From positions 1 through 58,754 of the forward strand of contig CAKUDT010000001.1 of the NCBI GenBank assembly GCA_934645125.1: a DNA stretch of 58,754 nucleotides, in the 5' to 3' direction. Below, in pieces: positions 23,175 to 48,404 of this stretch. Numbering within the stretch: position 1 is the first letter of the stretch; each line of letters starts with the position of its first letter. Both the position numbers and the translations under genes were made by a program. This DNA is from an uncultured Eggerthellaceae bacterium (GTDB lineage Bacteria; Actinomycetota; Coriobacteriia; Coriobacteriales; Eggerthellaceae). The notes under the pieces are model-generated. The model made no database searches. It was given only the letters and a program-made list of their open reading frames with translations, and was not told where the DNA came from.

Positions 23175-23258
<84 letters not shown>

Positions 23259-23422
23259 CACTTACAGCCACAGGGCATTTTATCAAATAAAGTGCGCTTG
23301 TCTCACGCGTTTCTAGAATAGGGAGAAAAGAATGGATTTCGCCGCGGCGCGTACCATTGCAACGGGCTCGTGTGCTATGCTAGTAAAGCTCTTGCATTAC
23401 ACACACCAAAAAACGAAGCAAA

Positions 23423-37994: not shown

Positions 37995-38378
37995 CTATTT
38001 GCCCGTCACTTTTTTGATGTAGGTTTTCCAATTCTCGAACGACTCGTCACTAATAGCATGCTCCATCTTGCAAGCCTCGTCCTCGGCGCGCTCAGCTGGA
38101 ATCCCTAAGACTTCCGTCAAGAAAACCGTAAGCAGATGATGGCGCTCGAGCACTGCCTGCCCGTACTCGTAGCCTTCTTCGGTAAGCGTGATATCGCCGT
38201 AAAACGGCTGGTCAAGCATGCCGCGCGTCTTAAGCGTAGCAACCGCCTTATTCACCGATGCCTTAGAAACGTCCAACTCGCGCGCTACGTCAACCGACCG
38301 CACCGCCTGCTCCGTGGTGCCGCCCAGCATAACAATGGCCTCAAGGTAATCCTCAATCGACATGGACATCTTTTCCAT
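37995..38378 (-). CDS. DtxR/MntR-family metal-dependent transcriptional regulator
   Basis: Start at the ATG at 38378, after AGGGGGA. SIEDYLEAIVML..., an HTH segment, then ERHHLLTVFLTEVLG. 127 aa with no SH3-like domain. Confidence 0.8.
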   Translation of the reverse strand: MEKMSMSIEDYLEAIVMLGGTTEQAVRSVDVARELDVSKASVNKAVATLKTRGMLDQPFYGDITLTEEGYEYGQAVLERHHLLTVFLTEVLGIPAERAEDEACKMEHAISDESFENWKTYIKKVTGK

Positions 38379-38531
38379 GAATATTCCCCCTATTGCAACA
38401 CAACCGCCCGCGCCTGCAACGCGTCGTGCGCTACCGGCACAACCACAAACGCCAAAGCGACCCAAATGTTAATCGTTGTGAACATTCTACACCACTTGCG
38501 ACAAGCACGCATGGCTTCATTCGGCCTACCG

Positions 38532-40142
38532 CTAACCCTTTTCCACCAAATCAATCAAATCTTGGTGCGAATGGATATCCAGCTTCGCATATATATGCTT
38601 GACGTGCGCTTTCACCGTGTTGCGCGAAACCACCAGCTGCTCCTGGATATACGTGCGGTCGCGTCCGCGCGCCAACATCTGGAACACCTCAAGCTCGCGC
38701 GGCGTGAGCCCGTACTGGTTGGCAATTGCATGGCAACGTTCGTCGAAGGTGGCTTTCGGCGCGGCGGCTACCGTCGTTTCCACCGGTGTCACGCCATCAA
38801 CAACCTGACGGAAGCTGAAATTCTTCAAACCAATGAGCGCATATCCCACGAATAGCAGAATCAACAACGCCGTGAACAGGCCAAATAACGGAGTTCCCAT
38901 GCCTGCCAGCGTGTTCGCGCCCACGCCAATCGTTGCACCCAACGTGCTCCCCAGACTGCAAACACCACGACCCCACGCGAAAGCCGCTACCGCGCCGCGG
39001 CTGTTGCGCGACGCAACCGCAATAAGCACCAGCCAGCCGACCATGCCAAACAACGTATTGCTCGCCGACAGCAACACCACCGCAGCCGTTTCAGAAGAAG
39101 GCAGATCAATGGTCATGGCAAGAAAGCCTGCTACCACAAACAGAACTGAAATCTGCACGACGAAATCCGTGGGGAAGCGCTTGCCCGACAGCAAAACCCA
39201 AACGGCAACTACTGCGGCGGGCAGGATTACCGTAAACGACGACAAAGGCACGCCCCCTACCTCGCCAAATCGCAACGAGCAGCCAAACGCCACGCTGAAC
39301 AGGAACAAGCATGCAAATAACTTGCTATCCAGCGGCAAAAACGACGAAGGCCGCGTAACGGAAAAATCGTGCGGCGCCTCGCCCTGTTGCGTCTCATGAA
39401 GGACCGGCTGCGCTTCTTTCCACGAAAGCGCCCACGAGGCAAATGGCGCCACCAGGAAAAACAGCATGCCAAACCATACAGGCAGCAGCCACGCGAACGC
39501 CGCTGCAACACACTGCACCACAAACGCAAGCGACACCATCACGCCAGCTTGCAGTGGCGATAAGCGCGATGCCGCAATGCCCACCGTCAAAGTGACCCAC
39601 GCGCGCCCAACGGCCGTTGCGCAGGCAGAAAGAACCAAAAGTGGCAAGCTGCCCAACCCCAAAGACAGCGGCAGCAAGCAACCCACCAGCAGCATAACAA
39701 GTCCGCCAACATTCAACGCATCAACGCGCAAATATGCAGGTCGAAACGTTGCCACCAGGCCAACGGCAATCAAAACCACCGCATTTGCGGTCACCGACAG
39801 GTCGCGCGCAGGGGCAAAAATGCCATCGAAATTCGGAAACACCGACACATTCATGAACGATATAGTGGCAAGAACCAGCGACAACGTAACGAACGAGCGC
39901 CAGAATGCCGGCGTAAACAAATGAGGAGTCGCCGCAGCCGAAGGGTCAGCCGCCACAGAAGGTGCCGAAGTCGGAGCCGCATCAACATCCGGCACCGCAG
40001 ATGCACCGCTGCCGCCGGTCAATGCAGACACGCCGGCGCCACGAGACGCCGCAGGCGATGCCAGGCAAGACCCTTCAGCCGAAGGCGCTTCGCCCGACAG
40101 AATGGCATCCTTTTCGGAGTGCTGCTTGTTTTCGCTTTTCAT
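38532..40142 (-). CDS. Membrane-anchored LuxR-family transcriptional regulator
   Basis: 536 aa, about 10 TM segments. C-terminal HTH LTPRELEVFQMLARGRDRTYIQEQLVVSRNTVKAHVKHIYAKL. Confidence 0.85.
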   Translation of the reverse strand: MKSENKQHSEKDAILSGEAPSAEGSCLASPAASRGAGVSALTGGSGASAVPDVDAAPTSAPSVAADPSAAATPHLFTPAFWRSFVTLSLVLATISFMNVSVFPNFDGIFAPARDLSVTANAVVLIAVGLVATFRPAYLRVDALNVGGLVMLLVGCLLPLSLGLGSLPLLVLSACATAVGRAWVTLTVGIAASRLSPLQAGVMVSLAFVVQCVAAAFAWLLPVWFGMLFFLVAPFASWALSWKEAQPVLHETQQGEAPHDFSVTRPSSFLPLDSKLFACLFLFSVAFGCSLRFGEVGGVPLSSFTVILPAAVVAVWVLLSGKRFPTDFVVQISVLFVVAGFLAMTIDLPSSETAAVVLLSASNTLFGMVGWLVLIAVASRNSRGAVAAFAWGRGVCSLGSTLGATIGVGANTLAGMGTPLFGLFTALLILLFVGYALIGLKNFSFRQVVDGVTPVETTVAAAPKATFDERCHAIANQYGLTPRELEVFQMLARGRDRTYIQEQLVVSRNTVKAHVKHIYAKLDIHSHQDLIDLVEKG

Positions 40143-40243
40143 CGCTTCCCTTCTTCCAGCTGGTATTTCATTATGGCAAAAAAACGGAAGCGAGAATAAT
40201 TCTCACTTCCGCCTGGAGGGGATTTTTTGCAGAGCAGCAGCTC

Positions 40244-41986
40244 TTACGCCTGGCCCGTGGCTGCCAGCATGCCGGCACGTCGGCCTTTCACCATAGTGCG
40301 GCCGCACGCCAAACCCGTGAACAGGTTCGGATAGCTCACGCTAAAGAAGCCGCCCGAGCAGTCGCCGGCCATGTACAGGCCCTCGATCTCGGAGCCGTCG
40401 GCGCGCACCGGGTGCATATTCGTGTTGATGCGCACGCCGTCCAGCGTTGCCAGGAACCACGCGCCCGTGCGGATGCCATAGTACGGCGGAGTCTTCAGCG
40501 GAATCAGACGATACGGCTCTTTGTTATAGTCCTCGTCCTTGCCGGCCTCGGCCATTTCGTTGTAACGATTGAACGTCTCCACGAAATTGTCCACCGGAAT
40601 GTTCAGCTTTTGCGCCAGTTCCTCGGGCGTATCGGCCTGCTGCAGATAACCCTTCTCCAGCAGGGGCTCGAAGAACATCTTGGGCATCAGGCTAATGTCC
40701 ATGTTCGACGCCGCGCCGTTGTCGAACGGGTACAAACGGCAGCAGCCCACTTCGTTCATCTGCTTGACTTGCGCCGCGTAATCGCTGTCGAAGATGTCGC
40801 AGTACGTGTGGCCCGGCTGCATGATGGTGGAATGTAGCATGTAATCGTACGGGCCGGACTCGTTGCAGAAACGCTTGCCGTTAAGGTTGACCTTCATGAA
40901 CGGCTGCTCGCCGAACCACCACCATTGGCCCAAAACGCCGTTTCCAGCCGTCTCGTCAGGCTTAACGCATGCGCGGTTGAACGTGCACGCGCAAGCCAGC
41001 GGGTCCATTTGGCCGCCTACCCACAGCGCAGCCTTAATGCCATCACCCGTGGAGTTGCCACCTACGCCGTTGCGCGAAATGGAAATGCGAATGTCCTGGT
41101 TCCACGGCTGACGAGCCTGCATCATCTCAAGGTTATTGCCGTAACCGCCTGTTGTCAAAATCACGCCCTTGTTGGCGTTGATGCGAACGTAATGGCGATC
41201 CTTCACGTCGCGCGCAATAATGCCGATCACGCGACCACTTTCGTCTTGCTCCAGCTTGATGAGCTCGGTGTTCCAGCGGAATTCCGCGCCCTTTTCTTCG
41301 GCATATTCCTTAAGCGACACACCAAAGTTGAAGTTCTTGTCCTCTTTGCCCAGGTCCGTCTTATTCGGGCTGTGACCCGTAGCCCATGCTTTGTCGCGCG
41401 CGCCCTGACCCTGCGTACCAATGGAGCCTTCGAAGTCCATGCGCAAACGGCCGTCGCGCTCAACAATTTCGGTCAGCCAGTCAATCAAGTCGCCGGACTC
41501 ATTGGCCTACACTTTCACCAGGTCATAATCAACGAAGCCGTTGGCATAGCGAACGATGTCTTCCATGGCTTCCATCTTGTCGATCTTGAACTCGGGGAAT
41601 TGCGCGAACGATGCCTGCTGCAGCTTCGAGTCAATGGCACCAATGTCTTCGCGCGGAGCGGCAACGGCGGAAGTGCGGTCAACGCCCAGAACCTTTGCGC
41701 CGTTCTCAGCTGCGGAAATAATCGCGGGAAGGCCAGCGGTGCGGCAACCCACAACCAGCACTTCGGTGTCAACCGTTTCGGTGATGTCGCGCTCGGCGAT
41801 TTCGGGAGCTTCGCCCAGCCAGCCAGTAGCACTTGCCTGACCTGCGGTTTCGCGAACAGGAACTTCGCTTTCAACAACGCGGTAACCGTTGCCGCAGCCG
41901 CTCAGCGCGCCCATAGCGGCAGCGCTTAAAACCGTAATGCCAGCGCCTTTAAGGAAGGAGCGGCGGTCGAGTCCGTTATTTTTCAT
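40244..41986 (-). pseudogene. Tat-exported FAD-dependent reductase (fumarate reductase/flavocytochrome c flavoprotein family), interrupted by an in-frame TAG
   Basis: ORFs 41507-41986 and 40244-41488 share one reading frame and are separated only by TAG at 41507-41509 (...DYDLVKV*ANESGDLIDWL...). RRSFLKGAG Tat signal, VLVVGCRTAG dinucleotide motif, C-terminal GLYMAGDCSGG. Confidence 0.75.
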
Positions 41987-42625
41987 TCGGGGCCTCCCAT
42001 CCTTCGGGCATGTTCAGGGCGTGGCACTCTTCGCACACCAACACGCTGGTTTCGTGAGCCTTATGGCAATCGCCGCACTCAAGCGCCAATCCTGATGGCT
42101 GCTGTGCGGATTGAATTTCTCGTCGTTGCCCTCAAAACCCCAGGTCTTCGCAACAACTTCGTCCATGTTATGGCAACCGCTCTTAGCGCAGAATTCTTCG
42201 CTTGCGAAATCCTTGCCCGTCGCCAGCTTGGTGCCGTCGGGGATCATTGGGTAATCGTCGGACACCCACTTCATGGCCTCGCCCACCTGCTCGGTCATGA
42301 CCGGCTCGTGGCAGCTCAGGCAGTTTTCGTCCGCTTCGGCGTGCGCCGTAACCAGCATGCCCTTGTCTCCGCTGTAATACGACTCAACGTAAGAATCCAT
42401 GGGGCTGTGGCAAACAGAATTGCAGAAGCCGGACGTCTCGTGCCACACCCAGATGCTAGCACCTGCCACCACAATCACCGCGGCAACCACGCCAGCGACA
42501 ATCCAGCCACGCTTCACTTTGCGCTTCGGTAAGGGTTCGCCGGGCAGAGAATCGCTTTGCGCGCCGCTCGACGCTTGAGCTTCAGCTGCTTCTTGCATTT
42601 CAGCCGCATTTTGCTCTTCAGCCAT
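41976..42625 (-). pseudogene. NapC/NirT/NrfH-like membrane-anchored multihaem cytochrome c with an apparent 1-nt frameshift near the 3' end
   Basis: Start at the ATG at 42625, after GGAAAAGGA. In frame: one TM segment, then CNSVCH, CLSCH and CAKSGCH. After ...NPHSSHQ (about 42083) a 1-nt frame change reads GLALECGDCHKAHETSVLVCEECHALNMPEGWEAPNEK and stops at 41976, overlapping the flavoprotein start. The annotated frame gives a haem-less tail instead. Confidence 0.65.
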
Positions 42626-42917
42626 TTGTTCCTTTTCCTTTCCGATAGGTTTTTCGGGACGGTTGCGCCCCGCATCGTTGACCGCATAATGCACTTCCAT
42701 GCGCGTGCGCGCCTAGTACCCCCATGGGGTAATCTTTCGTTTTTGCAGGTCAGAGCGTTGATGAAAGGTAGGGGTTGATTTTAAGGGCAACACGTCGCGG
42801 AAAGGTTATTTTCGGCAGTTTTTCTTGGATCGAGGACTGCAGAGCCTTGTTCTTTCGCCGACCGCCACCGGCTCAAAACCGATAGAAGCATGAAGGCATG
42901 CAGAGGAGAACGCGGGC

Positions 42918-42972
42918 AAAAACAAAAGCGCGGAAGCTCGGAGAGAGGGATCGAGCTTCCGCTTATTTTTTG
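42918..42972. terminator. Bidirectional intrinsic terminator with no plus-strand gene upstream
   Basis: GCGGAAGCTCG-gagagaggga-CGAGCTTCCGC, flanked by TTATTTTTT on the plus side and by TTTTGTTTTTG on the minus side. Confidence 0.75.
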
Positions 42973-43080
42973 CAGTGGATAAAGAGGAGAGAGAAGAGAG
43001 AGGAGGTTTGCAAAGAGACTCTTTCCACTGCCCCGGTTAGCGTTTTGCCAACTGCTTTGTTTTGTTAACCTTGGTTAACA
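42918..43080 (-). ncRNA. Candidate ~160-nt sRNA or attenuating leader with a CU-rich loop
   Basis: The minus strand runs from promoter 43114-43087, through a palindromic operator at the predicted start, to a hairpin GCAGTGGAAAGAG...CTCTTTATCCACTGC whose loop contains CCTCCTCTCTCTTCTCTCTCCTC, and then the terminator. No ORF of meaningful length. Confidence 0.45.
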
Positions 43081-43081
43081 A
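43062..43081. promoter_or_regulatory. Palindromic operator candidate TTGTTAACC-TT-GGTTAACAA
   Basis: Perfect 9-bp arms, positioned immediately downstream of the candidate -10 on the minus strand. Confidence 0.45.
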
Positions 43082-43086
43082 TGAGC

Positions 43087-43114
43087 ATAATACCGTATTT
43101 AGCGCGATGCGCAA
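43087..43114 (-). promoter_or_regulatory. Candidate sigma70-type promoter (TTGCGC-16 nt-TATTAT)
   Basis: Hexamers read on the minus strand. They point toward the CU-rich hairpin and terminator. Confidence 0.4.
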
Positions 43115-43403
43115 GAGCTTTTTCGAAAAAAGTTATCCTTTCCTTACTTTTTTCATGTGAGCGGCAAGGCGGCCGCGTCCAGCTGCCCGCACGCCAGCAG
43201 CGTCACCTGCGCAAGTCGCCCGCACGCCAGCCGTATCGTTCCCAGTCGCTCGTCTACACGCCAGTCGCACCAGCCGCATCGCCCGCGCATCCCGCCAACC
43301 CCTTCCCTTCGCAAATTTCTTACTCTTTCCCTTTTCGCAACACAGCCCCCACAAAGCGGGCGTAAAATAATCAGCAATAATCGACCACAAGATAGGAGTT
43401 GCC

Positions 43404-43772
43404 ATGGACGATTGCTTGTTCTGCAAACTGATTGCACGCGAAATCCCTACGAACATCGTGTACGAAGACGATGATTTCTTCGCATTCGACGATATTGAGC
43501 CCGAGTGCCCCATTCACACGCTGGTCGTGCCGAAGAAGCACTACACCAACCTGCAAGATAATGTTCCCGAGGAACTTTTGGGCAAACTGTGGAAGGTTGT
43601 ACCCGAAGTCGCAAAGATCAAGGGCGTGGGTGAATCCGGCTACCGTTCCGTTATCAACACCGGTCCCGACTCTGCCGCAACGCAGCCCCACCTGCATGTT
43701 CACATTCTGGGCGGCGTGAAGCTGGGTCGTTTCACATTCGAGGGATCCCAGCGCCTGGAGAACCACGAGTAA
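43404..43772 (+). CDS. HIT-family (histidine triad) nucleotide hydrolase
   Basis: 122 aa with an AGGAG RBS. DCLFCKLIAREIP and the histidine triad HLHVHILGG. Confidence 0.9.
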   Translation: MDDCLFCKLIAREIPTNIVYEDDDFFAFDDIEPECPIHTLVVPKKHYTNLQDNVPEELLGKLWKVVPEVAKIKGVGESGYRSVINTGPDSAATQPHLHVHILGGVKLGRFTFEGSQRLENHE

Positions 43773-43792
43773 CACGCATCACGGCACAAGTT

Positions 43793-43853
43793 GCAGGTGT
43801 TCGTGCTCATCTGAAACGCAAGCGGCGCGCTTCAGATGAGCACGAACACCTGC
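43793..43853. repeat. Perfect 23-bp inverted repeat with a 15-nt GC-rich loop
   Basis: GCAGGTGTTCGTGCTCATCTGAA-acgcaagcggcgcgc-TTCAGATGAGCACGAACACCTGC, 21 nt after the HIT stop. No U-tract on the plus strand. Confidence 0.8.
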
Positions 43854-44142
43854 CTAAAAATCGATAGAAGTTGATAGCTTCTTCTTGCTTCGCGTTCTCG
43901 AACGCTTGGATTTGTCGCTATGCCCCACACCCGCAACAACTTCGATACCAGGCATCCCTATAGTGCTCTTAAATCTATCCAGGTACGCATTTCTTTGCAT
44001 CGGTTTCACAACGGATTCTATTACGCAATATTCAATTTCTTCATTTTTGCGTAATATCAATAATTGCGTCACAGGCGCACAAGGGGAATCATTCAAAACA
44101 GCACGCTGGCATTTGCCGGCAAAACAGCAGAAGGGGGATTCC

Positions 44143-44595
44143 ATGAAACTTGCTACAGCTCTCGCAGAGCGGGCTGACCTGCAAAGACGTATTGCCGAGC
44201 TTTCCAACCGCCTGGCAAACAACGCCAGAGTGCAAGAAGGAGAAGCGCCCGCCGAAGATCCCGTCGACCTTATTCAGGAGCTCAATGATTGCATTGCGCG
44301 CCTGGAAGAACTCATGTCCCGTATCAACATGACCAACAGCCAAACATCCTGCAACGGCGCAACTATCACTCAAATGTTGGCAAAGCGCGATGCTTTGAGC
44401 CTGAAAGTCAAGGTCATGCGCGAATTCCTGGAAGAAGCAAGCCATCTTGTTGACCGCTACTCCCGAAGCGAAATCAAGGTGATCCCAACGGTGAAAGTAC
44501 CCGATTTACGCCGCGAGGTAGACTCTTATGCCAAAGAGCTGCGCGTTTTAGACGAAAAACTTCAGGAACTCAACTGGACCACGGAGCTGCTATAA
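44143..44595 (+). CDS. DIP1984-family protein (septicolysin-like, function unknown)
   Basis: ATG 44143 after AAGGGGG. 150 aa, helical. MKLATALAERADLQRRIAELSNRLANNARVQEGE...RYSRSEIK matches my recollection of this family. Confidence 0.6.
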   Translation: MKLATALAERADLQRRIAELSNRLANNARVQEGEAPAEDPVDLIQELNDCIARLEELMSRINMTNSQTSCNGATITQMLAKRDALSLKVKVMREFLEEASHLVDRYSRSEIKVIPTVKVPDLRREVDSYAKELRVLDEKLQELNWTTELL

Positions 44596-45031
44596 CAGCG
44601 CAAGAGCACAACAAAGGCGATCGGTAGCCCGTCCGGGCGAATGCGATCTCGGCGGCAGAGAAGGGAGCCGCACCACAGTAGCGCCTACCGGGCGGGCGCC
44701 TGGCCCAAAGGCCACGTAACGCAGCAAGCCCAGCAGCGTAACATGCGCACGGTTATTTCGCATGACGCACTACCCAGCATTGACGGACCGGCGAGGGCGG
44801 GATTCGGGGATTTGCCTTTTGTTGCAGAATAAATGAAGAAACCTGCGCCCACCCTTGTCACTCGTGCCCGCCACGCCATCCACACCCATACCTCTTTCCT
44901 TTGCTCGCGTTGCCCTGCGCGCGTCCCTGTCGCCACGCGCGTCTGCACGGGCGACGCCTTCCCTTCCCCACGTGCACTCTTCCCCTCCACCTATGGATGT
45001 TAACGTTATTCAACTTTTTTCATTCCAAGTA

Positions 45032-45060
45032 TTGACGTAGGAGTTCGCCGCCGCTAACAT
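45032..45060 (+). promoter_or_regulatory. Candidate feo promoter (TTGACG-17 nt-TAACAT)
   Basis: Correct spacing, 64 nt upstream of the feoA start. The -10 overlaps the first of two GCTAACA...TTTGTT direct repeats (45053-45069 and 45077-45093). Confidence 0.4.
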
Positions 45061-45123
45061 CTGTTTGTTCACCAAAGCTAACACGCTTTGTTTAGGAGAC
45101 GCAAAAGGGAAACGAGGATCATC

Positions 45124-45333
45124 ATGGTACTGTCAGAGTTGAGAGAAACCGGTAATTACCGCGTGAAGCAGCTCAAAGTAGGTGGCGACCTTGGCCGTCA
45201 TTTGCAGGACATGGGCTTTTTGCCGGGCGAACCCATCACGGTCGTTTCGCATTTCGATGGCAACATCATTGTGAACGTGAAGGGCACCCGCGTGGCGCTT
45301 TCCGAACAAATGGCCAAAAGCATCATGATCTAA
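45124..45333 (+). CDS. feoA: FeoA-family protein
   Basis: 69 aa, SH3-like. YRVKQLKVGGDLGRHLQDMGFLPGEPITVV. Confidence 0.85.
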   Translation: MVLSELRETGNYRVKQLKVGGDLGRHLQDMGFLPGEPITVVSHFDGNIIVNVKGTRVALSEQMAKSIMI

Positions 45334-45485
45334 GATTCGCACCGGACGCATGGAATTGCACCTGACCAGCCCAAATGCGGCTGGTAGGAGGGGTGCGCCC
45401 CTGTGCGTCTAAACGTATCCCACGTATCACCCCAACAACGGCAACTGTTAGCGACCCGTTTTGCACTTATTTGAGAGGAGGCTCC

Positions 45486-45707
45486 ATGAAGACATTGCGC
45501 GATGTTCAAAGTGGCGAAACCGTCAAAGCCGTCAAAATTCACGGCGAAGGCGGCATCAAGCGCCGCATTATGGACATGGGCATCACCAAGGGCTGCACAA
45601 TTTACGTGCGCAAAGTTGCCCCTTTGGGCGATCCCGTTGAAGTGACGGTTCGTGGTTACGAACTGACCCTTCGCAAGGAAGACGCCACTATGGTTGAAGT
45701 CGAGTAG
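45486..45707 (+). CDS. feoA: FeoA-family protein (second copy)
   Basis: 73 aa with a GAGGAGG RBS. VKAVKIHGEGGIKRRIMDMGITKGCTIYV. Confidence 0.85.
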   Translation: MKTLRDVQSGETVKAVKIHGEGGIKRRIMDMGITKGCTIYVRKVAPLGDPVEVTVRGYELTLRKEDATMVEVE

Positions 45708-45732
45708 GCACAGAGCCTTCCCTCTTCATTCT

Positions 45733-45755
45733 TGCCGCAGGAAGCGGCATTTTTT
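45733..45755 (+). terminator. Short hairpin plus T-run between feoA2 and feoB (partial terminator or attenuator)
   Basis: TGCCGC-aggaa-GCGGCA followed by TTTTTT. Confidence 0.4.
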
Positions 45756-45935
45756 AAGAACACGAGTTAACCGCTGCTAACAATCGGTTTGCACAGCGCA
45801 GCAAGCCAGCGCCGCCAAGACGCAATCGGGCAAAACCAAAGCCCAGCCGCACGACCAGGCAAAACGCTGCAAGACGCCGCCAAAGCCCGCTGATTGAAAG
45901 CACTGCCAACTCACCCGCAAACGAAAGGATCGAAC

Positions 45936-48404
45936 ATGAGGTTCGCACTAGCCGGCAATCCCAATTGCGGCAAAACGACTCTCTTCAACGCCCTGACCGG
46001 CTCAAACCAACGCGTTGGCAACTGGCCGGGCGTTACCGTGGAAAAGAAAGAAGGCGCCTGCAAAGCCAACAAGGATTTCCAGATTGTTGACCTTCCGGGC
46101 ATCTATTCTCTTTCTCCCTACACGCTTGAAGAAGTTGTTGCACGTAAATTCATCATCAACGAGCGCCCCGACGCCATTATCAACATCATTGACGGCTCCA
46201 ACCTGGAGCGCAACCTGTACCTGACCACGCAGCTGCTTGACCTGGGACTTCCCGTTTTGGTAGCCATCAACATGATGGACGTTGTACGCAAAAACGGCGA
46301 TATTATCAACATCGATGCCCTGCGCGAGAAGCTGGGCGCGGCCGACGTGGTTGAAATCTCCGCGCTGAAAGGCGAAGGCATTGACGCGCTGGTTGCCGCC
46401 ATGGGCGACCTTGCCTCCAAAGCAGCTCCCGCTGGCATGACGTTTACCCAGGCCATTGAGCCGGCCGTAAAGGAAGTAACCGCTCTGTTGCCCGATTCCA
46501 TTGATCCCGCCGTGCGCCGCTTCTACGCTGTTAAGCTGCTGGAAGGCGACGACAAGATCGGCGAAGGCATTGACGGCATGCCCGACGTATCTGAGCAGCA
46601 AAAAGCCATTGAACTTGCCTGCGATGATACCGCCGAAAGCGCCATCATCAACGAGCGCTACGAATGGATTGGCAACATCATCAACGACGTTGCCACTAAG
46701 GGCGCTGGCAGCAAGAAGGAATCCATTTCCGACAAAATTGACCGCGTAGTCACGAACCGCATTTTGGCGTTGCCCATCTTCGCCGTGGTCATGTTCCTGG
46801 TGTACTACCTGTCCGTTACCACCGTTGGCGGCGTAGCCACCGACTGGGCAAACGATGGCGTGTTCGGCGATGGCTGGTTCCTTGATCCGGCACCCATTGT
46901 TGGCATCGACGGCGCTCAAGCCGACTTTGACGAGGTCAACGACGAGTTTGAAAGTGCCTTGGGCATTGTTGAAACCGGCATTGGCGGCACGTATCAGGAT
47001 TACGACGATGAGTCCGGCGAAGGCGAAATGGTCGAAGTTGACCGCGAGACCTACAACGAAGCCATCGGCGTGCTGCAAGAAGCTGCGGGCGACGATGCCG
47101 AAGCAGCAACCGCCGTCTCCTACCTGGCGAAAAACACCCTGGGCGATGAAGAAAACGAAGCCCGCGCCGAGGCCCTGGAGACCGCAGGTGAGCTGGGTCC
47201 CGACCCCGCTGAATACGGCATTTGGATTCCCGGCATCCCTGCACTGCTGGAAGACCTGACTAGCTCACTTGGTCTTGACGAGGAAAGCTGGCTGCACGGT
47301 CTGATCTTCGACGGCATCGTTGCCGGTCTGGGCGCCATGCTGGGCTTCTTGCCGCAGATGTTCATCCTGTTCTTGCTGCTGTCCTTCCTGGAGCTGTGCG
47401 GCTACACGTCCCGCGTTGCGTTCATTCTGGACCGCATCTTCCGCCGCTTCGGCCTGTCCGGTAAGTCGTTCATTCCGCTGCTCATCAGCTCTGGCTGCGG
47501 CGTTCCGGGCGTTATGGCAAGCCGCACCATTGAGAACTTGAACGACCGTCGCATGACCGTTATGACCGCAACGTTTGTTCCCTGCGGTGCAAAACTCCCG
47601 TTCATCGCGTTGATCGCGGGCGCTGTGTTCGGTGGCGCCTGGTGGGTTGCCCCGTGCGCGTACTTCATGGGCATTGCCTGCGTGTTGCTTTCCGGCATCA
47701 TCCTAAAGAAGTTCAAGGCATTCGCCGGCGAAGCCACCCCGTTCGTTATGGAACTTCCTGCCTACCACCTGCCCTCCTTCGGTAGCGTTATGCGCGCCAC
47801 GGGCGAGCGTTGCATGGCATTCGTCAAGAAGGCCCTTACCGTTCTGTTGCTGGCGACCATCGTCATTTGGTTCCTGAGCACCTACGGCATTGTCGATGGC
47901 GCTTTCGGCGCGGTCGAGGATCAGGCCGACTCCATGCTGGCTGCTATCGGTGGTGCCATCTCGGGCATCTTCGCTCCCCTGGGTTGGGGCACATGGCAAG
48001 CAACCGCAGCGTCTATCGTGGGCATTACCGCAAAGGAAAACATCGTGTCTACGCTGGGCATCCTTTACGCCTGCCCCGAAGGCTGGTATTCAGCAGTTCA
48101 GGCCGCACTGCCTACGGCCGCTGGCTTCAGCTTCCTGGCGTTTAACCTGCTGTGCATCCCCTGCTTCGCAGCTATGAGCGCCATTCTGAAGGAAATGGGC
48201 GGCATCAAATGGGCCGCCGCCGCCTGGGGCTATGAGTGCCTGGTTGCCTACGTAATCGCATTCATTTGCTACCAATTCATTGGTCTGGGAACCGGCGAAT
48301 GCGCGTTTGGCATTGGAACGATTGTTGCCATTGCGCTGGTTGCCGCCATCCTGTACTTGCTGTTCCGTCCGAACAAGTACGCAAAGAAGCAGCTCAACGA
48401 CTAG
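45936..48404 (+). CDS. feoB: Ferrous iron transporter FeoB with a large acidic loop insertion
   Basis: ATG 45936 after AAAGGA. G-domain GNPNCGKTTLFNALTG and DLPG. Polytopic C-terminal domain with LLSFLELCGYTSRVAFILD. Confidence 0.95.
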   Translation: MRFALAGNPNCGKTTLFNALTGSNQRVGNWPGVTVEKKEGACKANKDFQIVDLPGIYSLSPYTLEEVVARKFIINERPDAIINIIDGSNLERNLYLTTQLLDLGLPVLVAINMMDVVRKNGDIINIDALREKLGAADVVEISALKGEGIDALVAAMGDLASKAAPAGMTFTQAIEPAVKEVTALLPDSIDPAVRRFYAVKLLEGDDKIGEGIDGMPDVSEQQKAIELACDDTAESAIINERYEWIGNIINDVATKGAGSKKESISDKIDRVVTNRILALPIFAVVMFLVYYLSVTTVGGVATDWANDGVFGDGWFLDPAPIVGIDGAQADFDEVNDEFESALGIVETGIGGTYQDYDDESGEGEMVEVDRETYNEAIGVLQEAAGDDAEAATAVSYLAKNTLGDEENEARAEALETAGELGPDPAEYGIWIPGIPALLEDLTSSLGLDEESWLHGLIFDGIVAGLGAMLGFLPQMFILFLLLSFLELCGYTSRVAFILDRIFRRFGLSGKSFIPLLISSGCGVPGVMASRTIENLNDRRMTVMTATFVPCGAKLPFIALIAGAVFGGAWWVAPCAYFMGIACVLLSGIILKKFKAFAGEATPFVMELPAYHLPSFGSVMRATGERCMAFVKKALTVLLLATIVIWFLSTYGIVDGAFGAVEDQADSMLAAIGGAISGIFAPLGWGTWQATAASIVGITAKENIVSTLGILYACPEGWYSAVQAALPTAAGFSFLAFNLLCIPCFAAMSAILKEMGGIKWAAAAWGYECLVAYVIAFICYQFIGLGTGECAFGIGTIVAIALVAAILYLLFRPNKYAKKQLND

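Follow-up and report, generated by a model that had tools for sequence, protein, structure and literature searches.

We analysed a 58,754-nucleotide (nt) stretch of DNA from an uncultured Eggerthellaceae bacterium (assembly GCA_934645125.1, contig CAKUDT010000001.1, positions 1 to 58,754), hereafter called the window, and describe a predicted RNA gene at positions 42,918 to 43,114 of its minus strand. The RNA is a member of a family that occurs widely in Eggerthellaceae and had not been catalogued before. We consider it somewhat better than an even chance (a probability of about 0.55) that the gene stands alone and specifies an RNA of ~160 nt, running roughly from 43081 to 42918, and that this RNA is a metal-repressed, probably Fe2+-repressed, trans-acting small RNA (sRNA) with anti-Shine-Dalgarno (anti-SD) loops. 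Expression of the RNA, its end at the terminator and its action in trans are what we infer from the sequence. Such an RNA is probably the Eggerthellaceae counterpart of the iron-sparing RNAs of other bacteria. The initial annotation of this DNA had put forward a regulated, stand-alone sRNA with anti-SD-like loops, and the comparative evidence now lends support to that suggestion through the promoter boxes, covariation, linkage to a gene for a DtxR-family repressor (here dtxR) and a shared operator motif.

Structure and conservation of the RNA family

The initial annotation had described in this region a promoter of the form TTGCGC-16 nt-TATTAT, a perfect palindrome at the predicted start, a 13-bp interrupted stem with a 32-nt pyrimidine loop, and a strong GC-rich hairpin followed by a T run. 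All of these elements were indeed present. The features of the RNA gene, with coordinates on the minus strand of the window, are as follows.

43118 to 43133, minus strand: A/T-rich imperfect palindrome ACTTTTTTCGAAAAAG just 5' of the -35 box, a putative UP-like element
43087 to 43114, minus strand: predicted promoter, with -35 box TTGCGC (43114-43109), 16-nt spacer and -10 box TATTAT (43092-43087)
43081-43062, minus strand: perfect palindrome TTGTTAACC-AA-GGTTAACAA, that is TTGTTAACCAAGGTTAACAA, 5 nt past the -10 box and at the predicted +1
43036 to 43055, minus strand: small hairpin GUUGGC-AAAAC-GCUAAC, seen in the fold and found only in the 5 closest relatives
42972 to 43031, minus strand: hairpin A, with a 13-bp interrupted stem of GCAGTGGAAAGAG (43031-43019) and CTCTTTATCCACTGC (42986-42972)
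42963 to 42971, minus strand: A-rich linker AAAAAAUAA between hairpins A and B
42918 to 42962, minus strand: hairpin B, also an intrinsic terminator, with an 11-bp GC stem and loop AUCCCUCUCUC, followed by UUUUGUUUUU

The 32-nt loop of hairpin A (43018-42987) is rich in pyrimidines and contains CCTCCTCTCTCTTCTCTCTCCTC / ACCUCCUCUCUCUUCUCUCUCCUC; it carries ACCUCCUCUC..., of which the initial 7 nt, ACCUCCU, match the anti-SD tail of 16S ribosomal RNA (rRNA). The arms of hairpin B, GCGGAAGCTCG (42962-42952) and CGAGCTTCCGC (42940-42930), enclose an 11-nt loop, ATCCCTCTCTC, which is likewise pyrimidine-rich, and the run TTTTGTTTTT follows directly after the hairpin B region at 42927-42918. Both loops of the window RNA are CU-mixed, with a longest C run of 3. 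The 168-nt RNA folded at -55.8 kcal/mol, compared with -33.0 +/- 3.1 kcal/mol for dinucleotide shuffles (z = -7.45), and 0 of 200 shuffles equalled it. No chance match to the palindrome at 43081-43062 was found in 100 shuffles of the window; if transcribed, this palindrome is also a 5'-terminal hairpin. A simple sigma-70 scan listed neither the promoter nor the terminator of the RNA, the former because TTGCGC fits only 3/6 positions of TTGACA and the latter because the loop is longer than 8 nt.

Copies of the RNA were found at 92-98% identity in 5 species and at ~80% in 2 more, and the genomes nearest to the host are metagenome-assembled genomes from Hadza guts. Locus labels such as L001, L008 and L011 denote the loci or contigs of the relatives compared. 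Across the 7 species of the window's clade, CTTGC and GGTATTAT are invariant and the spacer sequence between them is variable; the A/T tract upstream of the -35 box is kept in 6/6 aligned relatives, and the arms of the start-site palindrome change together in L011 and L008. In this clade (clade 1), the conserved boxes, the variable spacer and a strong, covarying terminator point to an independent transcription unit.

To trace the family further we used two covariance models, R1 built from clade 1 and R2 built from the second clade only. R1 gave weak matches just 5' of dtxR in the second clade, at loci fetched via the DtxR-like protein, and a second-clade sequence pattern was found in 14 further Eggerthellaceae/Coriobacteriaceae genomes, with dtxR 150-220 nt downstream in 14/14; a fifteenth match to the pattern was set aside as a chance match. 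R2 recovered 7/7 window-clade copies at 26-30 bits (E 0.001-0.007), with no further hit in 42 loci amounting to 296 kb. Since a model that was built from the second clade only finds all the window-clade copies, the clades are homologous. Of 80 metagenomic dtxR loci, 28 gave an R2 match to the RNA upstream of dtxR, and R2 further detected the RNA, at 69-87 bits, in Eggerthella sp. YY7918 and in loci whose DtxR-like proteins are exactly those assigned to Rubneribacter badeniensis and Paraeggerthella hongkongensis; the YY7918 RNA core lies at AP012211.1 complement(2393334..2393420). The two models together yielded 34 distinct copies from Eggerthellaceae genomes and gut metagenomes.

Conservation and covariation, which the initial annotation had named as a check, were borne out by these 34 sequences. 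MAFFT alone misaligned hairpin B between the clades, and in its place we used alignments guided by the models. Of the cells in the two core helices, 98.4% were paired, compared with 35-56% when the partners were slid, which is the fair comparison because model-based alignments lean to the structure of the model. Changes on both sides were seen in 19 of the 24 pairs, and the observed values were reached by 0/500 shuffles. The stem of hairpin A showed compensatory changes in 8/12 modelled pairs, with 99.3% of cells paired, and that of hairpin B in 11/12. Among the window-clade copies, the stem of hairpin A is preserved through an A-U to G-C exchange, and in hairpin B nearly every pair is altered while a hairpin with a C/U loop is retained. 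The alignment also identifies the transcribed strand, because ~50 G-U cells would read as A-C mismatches on the opposite strand.

The pyrimidine character of the loops is equally general. In all 18 tabulated genome-derived members, loop A is at least 84% pyrimidine, and both loops fall at 71-95%. Loop A of clade 1 contains ACCUCCU or CACCUCCU, and in the GC-rich clade 3 CACCUCCUCUUUU stands in single strand immediately 5' of hairpin A; all of these match the 16S anti-SD tail, which reads CACCUCCU. C runs of 5-9 occur in loop B in clades 2 and 3 only. The linker after hairpin A is A-rich (AAA...) in clades 1 and 2 and of a CAGC type in clade 3. The small hairpin at 43036 to 43055 appears to be a shrunken counterpart of the longer GUCAGC...GCUGAC 5' domain of the other clades, and GCTAAC-CGGGGCAGTGG may accordingly be homologous to their GCTGAC-CCGGCGGTG. 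At the place equivalent to the window's promoter, the other clades carry near-consensus boxes, TTGAC(A/G/T)-17/18-TA(A/G)(A/G)(A/C)T. A U tract follows hairpin B in clade 1, and a U-tract terminator is found in most clade-2 members and in YY7918, positioned behind hairpin B or behind a third hairpin. L139 (7226-7390) has, 5' of the RNA gene, a long inverted repeat, GGAGGGGGGATGCACCGGAGGGGGGCTAATGCATCA ... TGATGCATTAGCCCCCCTCCGGTGCATCCCCCCTCC, enclosing TTCACCGCAAAATGA, which looks like a duplicated fragment of the 3' arm of hairpin A plus linker.

Operator motif at the RNA, feo and dtxR promoters

The start-site palindrome, read in the initial annotation as operator-like and as a possible site for a DtxR-family dimer, is an instance of the motif (A/T)GTTA-N8-TAAC(A/T), which we also found at the feoA, feoB and dtxR promoters. 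Allowing at most one mismatch, we counted 5 occurrences of TGTTA-N8-TAACA in the window, where 0.64 would be expected. Four of the matches lie at the promoters of the RNA, feoA1, feoB and dtxR, and the fifth, inside a coding region, is probably due to chance. The sites and the genes concerned are listed below.

45032 to 45083, plus strand: feoA1 promoter, with TTGACG (45032-45037), 17-nt spacer and TAACAT (45055-45060)
45066-45083, plus strand: operator-type palindrome TGTTCACCAAAGCTAACA, 5 nt past the feoA1 -10 box, the same geometry as at the RNA promoter
45765 to 45782, plus strand: operator-type palindrome AGTTAACCGCTGCTAACA between feoA2 and feoB
45124 to 48404, plus strand: feoA1 (45124-45333), feoA2 (45375-45707) and feoB (45894-48404), by Pfam FeoA and FeoB
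38467 to 38484, minus strand: operator-type palindrome TGTTCACAACGATTAACA, overlapping the -10 box TAGAAT of the dtxR-like gene
37995 to 38378, minus strand: DtxR/MntR-family two-domain repressor of 127 residues, by Pfam Fe_dep_repress and Fe_dep_repr_C

The RNA gene therefore appears to share a putative metal-repressor operator with metal-uptake genes, and co-regulation of the RNA with feoA1, feoA2 and feoB, the genes for ferrous-iron uptake, is predicted. NCBIfam matched feoA2 only, and feoA1 was recognised by its translation and by tblastn with a FeoA query in relatives. A site identical to the feoA1 operator is present in L001, L002, L003, L025 and L104. Two weaker operator-like sites, GATGTTAACGTTATTCAACTTT and GGAGTTCGCCGCCGCTAACATC, lie at 44996-45061 on the plus strand, upstream of or overlapping the feoA1 promoter, which suggests up to three tandem sites there, the weaker two plus the main one. 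At dtxR, the palindrome lies over the -10 box, and autoregulation is therefore predicted; the site is conserved in relatives, and in L008 and L011 the same arrangement of operator and -10 box comes directly after the RNA terminator.

The motif was also seen outside clade 1. In clades 2 and 3 the -10 box of the RNA promoter lies inside the motif, as in AGTTAACCTATACTAACA, and further copies occur 5' of the -35 box. The 16.4-kb YY7918 locus contains 4 matches, against 0.05 expected: two belong to the RNA promoter, one belongs to the start region of feoA1, and one precedes feoB by 100 nt, with none elsewhere in the locus. The occurrence of the motif at both the RNA and feoAB in the independent YY7918 clade confirms that the two have a regulator site in common.

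That the DtxR-like protein is what binds this motif is suggested by the linkage described below and, in clade 1, by a site at the promoter of the protein's gene. The best NCBIfam match of the protein is MntR, below the cut-off. Its ligand positions are D10, C103, E106 and H107, corresponding to M10, C102, E105 and H106 of IdeR, and the equivalent of Cys102 is Cys in these DtxR-like proteins, with His in a few members. The link to feoAB favours Fe2+ as the sensed metal.

A second palindrome, GTTTCACGTGAAAC (usually AATGTTTCACGTGAAACATT), perfect over 14 bp, was noticed in the YY7918 locus (L230) at 2576, 3342, 3907, 4095 and 6993. These five copies are confined to feo-cluster intergenic regions within the 16-kb locus, and the element is absent from the window; in clade-3 metagenome loci, L151 and L163 among them, it also lies ~400 nt 5' of dtxR. 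It may be the site of a second regulator or a repeat element.

Linkage to dtxR and alternative functions

The gene upstream of the RNA, HIT, lies on the plus strand (43404-43772) and is divergent from the RNA; its strand had been misread in the initial annotation. The RNA was absent from 20 other Eggerthellaceae HIT loci, and CU-rich runs 5' of the Adlercreutzia HIT gene were rejected as candidates, being the reverse complement of a coding KKKEK stretch. As judged from gene order, the conserved linkage is to dtxR, not to HIT. The DtxR/MntR-family gene that had been noted nearby is the neighbour of the RNA in every other clade: in all members outside one insertion-carrying subclade, that of the window, it lies downstream on the same strand at a distance of 50-360 nt (mostly <230), and in L008/L083 and L011/L088 it starts 50-70 nt after the terminator. 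The upstream neighbour differs by clade (HIT, thrC or feoB) and the RNA-dtxR pair is constant, usually with feoAB close by. The order in YY7918 and in R. badeniensis- and P. hongkongensis-type loci is feoB, a small gene, the RNA, dtxR, divIC and ppx. In all clades dtxR has its own conserved extended -10 box, TGGTAGAAT or TGGTACCATGG.

In the window, the minus-strand open reading frames (ORFs) downstream of the RNA encode a 228-residue CxxCH protein, a flavin reductase, a LuxR-type regulator and the 127-residue DtxR/MntR-family repressor. The first three form a cassette (38532-42700, minus strand) that constitutes a 4.4-kb insert between the RNA terminator and the dtxR promoter. On the other side, the interval from the RNA promoter to the HIT start (43152-43272) is GC-rich with repeated GCTGGCGTGCGGGC-like units; Tandem Repeats Finder reported nothing in it, it could not be aligned in L003, and it appears to be a variable spacer. 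A DUF6847 / DIP1984-family gene (43885-44595, plus strand) lies between HIT and the feo operon, in the same place as in the closest relatives.

The constancy of the RNA-dtxR pair raises the question of whether the RNA acts chiefly in cis, as a 5' leader of the dtxR-like mRNA, or has a dual function; transcription from the RNA promoter would then either stop at hairpin B or the following terminator or continue into dtxR, and the leader would set the level of the repressor, for instance by partial termination or by its anti-SD sequences acting on the dtxR ribosome-binding site. In keeping with this, dtxR follows the RNA immediately on the same strand in all clades except the window's insertion subclade, the gap is short, the pair stays together while the upstream sequences vary, and several lineages (L118-type and clade 3) show no obvious U-tract terminator, so that read-through, and with it a dual role, may occur there. 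However, the 4.4-kb insertion separates the RNA from dtxR in the window's lineage, and the RNA nevertheless keeps 92-98% identity in 5 species. When the RNA was folded together with the dtxR start, the minimum-free-energy structures had open CU loops, and the dtxR SD sequence was paired elsewhere; pairing of the loops with the dtxR ribosome-binding site is no better than in shuffles; and no alternative pairing that competes with hairpin B appeared in the folds examined. We regard a leader function as unlikely and favour a stand-alone sRNA, because clade 1 and most of clade 2 have strong U-tract terminators and YY7918 has a U-tract terminator too, because dtxR has its own extended -10 box in all clades (and its own operator in clade 1), and because the window lineage keeps the RNA 4.4 kb away from dtxR.

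A conserved structured RNA outside metal control, in which the palindrome is only a stabilising 5'-terminal hairpin, is a poorer candidate still. Such an RNA could act as a protein-binding RNA or as a decoy for pyrimidine-binding proteins or 30S subunits. The 5' hairpin of L118-type members has a different sequence, CGGGAAACGUUUUCCCG, so what is conserved may be the mere presence of a 5' hairpin; the L011 palindrome has one U-G pair, which suits an RNA stem better than a DNA palindrome; and no target was found. Against this, the motif recurs near the feoA, feoB and dtxR promoters, where it could not serve as the RNA's own 5' hairpin, and its position over the -10 box in clades 2 and 3 puts most of it upstream of the transcript.

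The initial annotation had also offered, as its alternative, an attenuating leader of the cytochrome/flavin-reductase operon, and had named the operon in its title. The RNA and the operon are on the same strand, and 218-293 nt separate the end of the terminator from the cytochrome ORF. However, L001, L003 and L104 carry different partial deletions that leave the cassette absent or truncated and the RNA intact at 92-98% identity, and none of the other clades examined has the cytochrome/reductase/LuxR block. In L001, identity to the window is 99.8% from 45480 down to position 42918 exactly, where the terminator has its last T, and 38860-42918 is missing; the segment missing from L003 and L104 is 38776-42230. 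The cassette is also degenerate in the window itself: the ORFs of the supposed reductase operon are there, but the flavin reductase is split by one in-frame TAG (41509-41507; ...DYDLVKV*ANESGD...), and the ORF described as a cytochrome is present but has a single CxxCH motif. The C-terminus of the latter looks frameshifted. The cassette thus reads as a decaying insertion between the RNA and dtxR that is being deleted while the RNA is kept. Deletion of the cassette with retention of the RNA removes the attenuator reading, which is now highly improbable, and the tie to the reductase operon is incidental. Between L001 and the window, identity is 99.8% over the RNA/HIT/DUF6847/feoA1 block (42918-45480) and 88% over the dtxR side (36993-38860), which suggests that the block was recently recombined or exchanged between species.

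A small protein encoded by the transcript is just as improbable: a 21-codon GTG frame, VERVSLQTSSLFSLLFIHCKK, does run through loop A, with length differences among the window, L011 and L008 that are multiples of three by eye, but its stop codon and most residues are by eye not conserved in L011 and L008, in keeping with the earlier view that no meaningful ORF is present, GGGG stands only 2 nt from the GTG, and the main family has no common frame (GTGAAGATTCCTCTCGTCTGA gives a frame of 6 codons in clade 2 and one that stays open in clade 3). The case of RybA of E. coli, a former sRNA that turned out to encode MntS, is the precedent for this idea.

Several observations weigh against the metal-repressed, trans-acting sRNA that we favour. 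The -35 box is weak in the window's clade, with 3/6 positions of TTGACA. No obvious U-tract terminator lies between the RNA and dtxR in the L118/L130/L136 group and in clade 3, so the RNA may be co-transcribed with dtxR there. No copy of the motif was observed at the dtxR promoters in clades 2 and 3, and its assignment to the DtxR-like protein is not exclusive, because GTTTCACGTGAAAC is also enriched in the YY7918 feo locus. The metal ligands are a hybrid of a Mn-type Asp10 and a Fe-type Cys103, and the sensed metal is for this reason not readable from the residues. One close relative, the genome of L002 and L110, seems to be without the RNA: no copy was found at its HIT or dtxR locus, though its HIT protein is 98% identical to that of the window. 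L002 and L110 are contigs of CAVDDP01, labelled Hallerella sp., a genome in which the feoA operator is present; they are probably mis-binned, because their HIT (98%), FeoA/FeoB and DtxR-like (90%) proteins resemble the Eggerthellaceae proteins of the window. Lastly, the search for targets found none: in 6 genomes, pairing of the loops with the feoA1 and dtxR initiation regions did not exceed that of shuffled controls (absolute z < 2), and the RNA has no extended complementarity to the dtxR ribosome-binding site. Among 154 start regions of the window, which is 58 kb of the genome, the best duplexes were with a doubtful ORF at 44948 and with feoA1 at -24.6 kcal/mol, and these were neither above composition-matched shuffles nor conserved.

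Relation to known sRNAs and proposed role

A scan of the whole window with Rfam 15 at gathering thresholds matched only a tRNA gene (23179-23259, minus strand) and gave no family for the RNA; nor did any Rfam family, including any mycobacterial sRNA model held there, reach threshold on it. Permissive scans of the RNA region and 10 related loci returned only sub-threshold matches, to ar7, FsrA, ylbH, ar14, RcsR1 and BjrC1505. The scores were 16.6 bits (E = 1.4) against a gathering score of 80 for FsrA (RF02273) and 24.4 bits against 60, on hairpin B only, for ar7 (RF02342); on other family members, ar14 (RF02344) reached 23.3 against 58.8 and RcsR1 (RF02552) 21 against 60. The 6C model (RF01066) gave no match in the window region at E <= 10 or in 10 loci from all clades at E <= 5. 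In the literature searched, no regulatory RNA was described for Eggerthellaceae, and nothing relevant was found on Eggerthella sRNAs or DtxR. The functional type is known; the family itself is in neither Rfam 15 nor the literature searched.

By analogy, and not by homology, the RNA resembles IsrR, FsrA and MrsI. IsrR of Staphylococcus aureus has Fur boxes at its promoter and start site and three C-rich regions that pair with SD sequences, and it targets the SD regions of mRNAs for iron-containing enzymes (PMC9410917). The RNA described here likewise would be a stand-alone gene in a Gram-positive host, with a predicted metal-repressor operator at the promoter or start, several hairpins with C-rich single-stranded loop motifs and a Rho-independent terminator. 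However, the two are not alike in sequence or by covariance model, Fur and not a DtxR-family protein represses IsrR, and IsrR has plain C runs whereas our RNA has CU-rich anti-SD-like loops and is linked to its presumed regulator. MrsI (ncRv11846) of Mycobacterium, with an IdeR site near its start site (PMC6016810), is closer in being an actinobacterial sRNA with a DtxR-family site near the start, a hairpin-loop seed and a terminator; its sequence and its 6-nt loop seed are unrelated, and it is not adjacent to ideR. FsrA of Bacillus subtilis, in the account given in the discussion of PMC9410917, is an iron-starvation sRNA whose C-rich motif binds SD sequences. It differs in being Fur-regulated and in needing Fbp chaperones.

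Two further groups resemble the RNA in structure. The 6C RNA of Actinomycetota has two hairpins with C-rich loops, which pair with G-rich mRNA sites with no known chaperone (PMC6486639). By contrast, loop A of our family never has a six-C run, the two loops do not each show at least 6 consecutive C, and the genomic context and operator are unrelated. The Cuckoo, CcsR, RcsR1 and alpha-r14 sRNAs share with it repeated hairpins whose loops carry the anti-SD-like CCUCCUCCC, but these belong to another phylum (Alphaproteobacteria), and the scores were far below their gathering scores (45-60). A 2022 review lists RsaC of S. aureus, controlled by MntR, as the only sRNA under a DtxR-family regulator and gives 'none reported' for DtxR with Fe (PMC9294342).

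We propose the following mechanism for the metal-repressed sRNA. When metal is plentiful (most likely Fe2+, less likely Mn2+), a metal-loaded dimer of the DtxR-like protein would sit on the operator and block transcription of the RNA together with that of feoAB. When metal is scarce, the RNA would be made, and its single-stranded pyrimidine loops, with loop A ACCUCCUCUC... and loop B AUCCCUCUCUC as pairing elements, would pair with the SD or other G/A-rich regions of target mRNAs and lower their translation. The outcome would be an iron-sparing type of response, comparable to those of IsrR, FsrA, RyhB and MrsI. A wider scheme, which we offer only tentatively and consider doubtful, is a linked module, conserved across Eggerthellaceae, of a 16S-tail-mimicking RNA and a DtxR-family repressor, in which the repressor would silence the RNA and feoAB when iron is available. 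Under iron shortage the RNA, partly via read-through or feedback on dtxR, would reprogramme how the very many Fe-S, flavin and heme reductases of this family are translated.

The Eggerthellaceae, Actinomycetota of the gut, are noted for the reductive metabolism of drugs and dietary compounds, and their reductive enzymes depend heavily on Fe-S clusters, flavins and hemes. The RNA family offers a testable handle on metal-dependent post-transcriptional control in these bacteria: one carrier, Eggerthella sp. YY7918, is in culture and completely sequenced, and the RNA has a defined predicted promoter and operator and candidate seed loops. It is also a well-covarying new RNA family for Rfam. If the proposed function holds true, the RNA would be the first riboregulator described in Coriobacteriia and a stand-alone, Fe-linked sRNA under a DtxR-family protein, and it would add a DtxR-family-linked case to the iron-sparing sRNAs, which have so far been mostly Fur-controlled.

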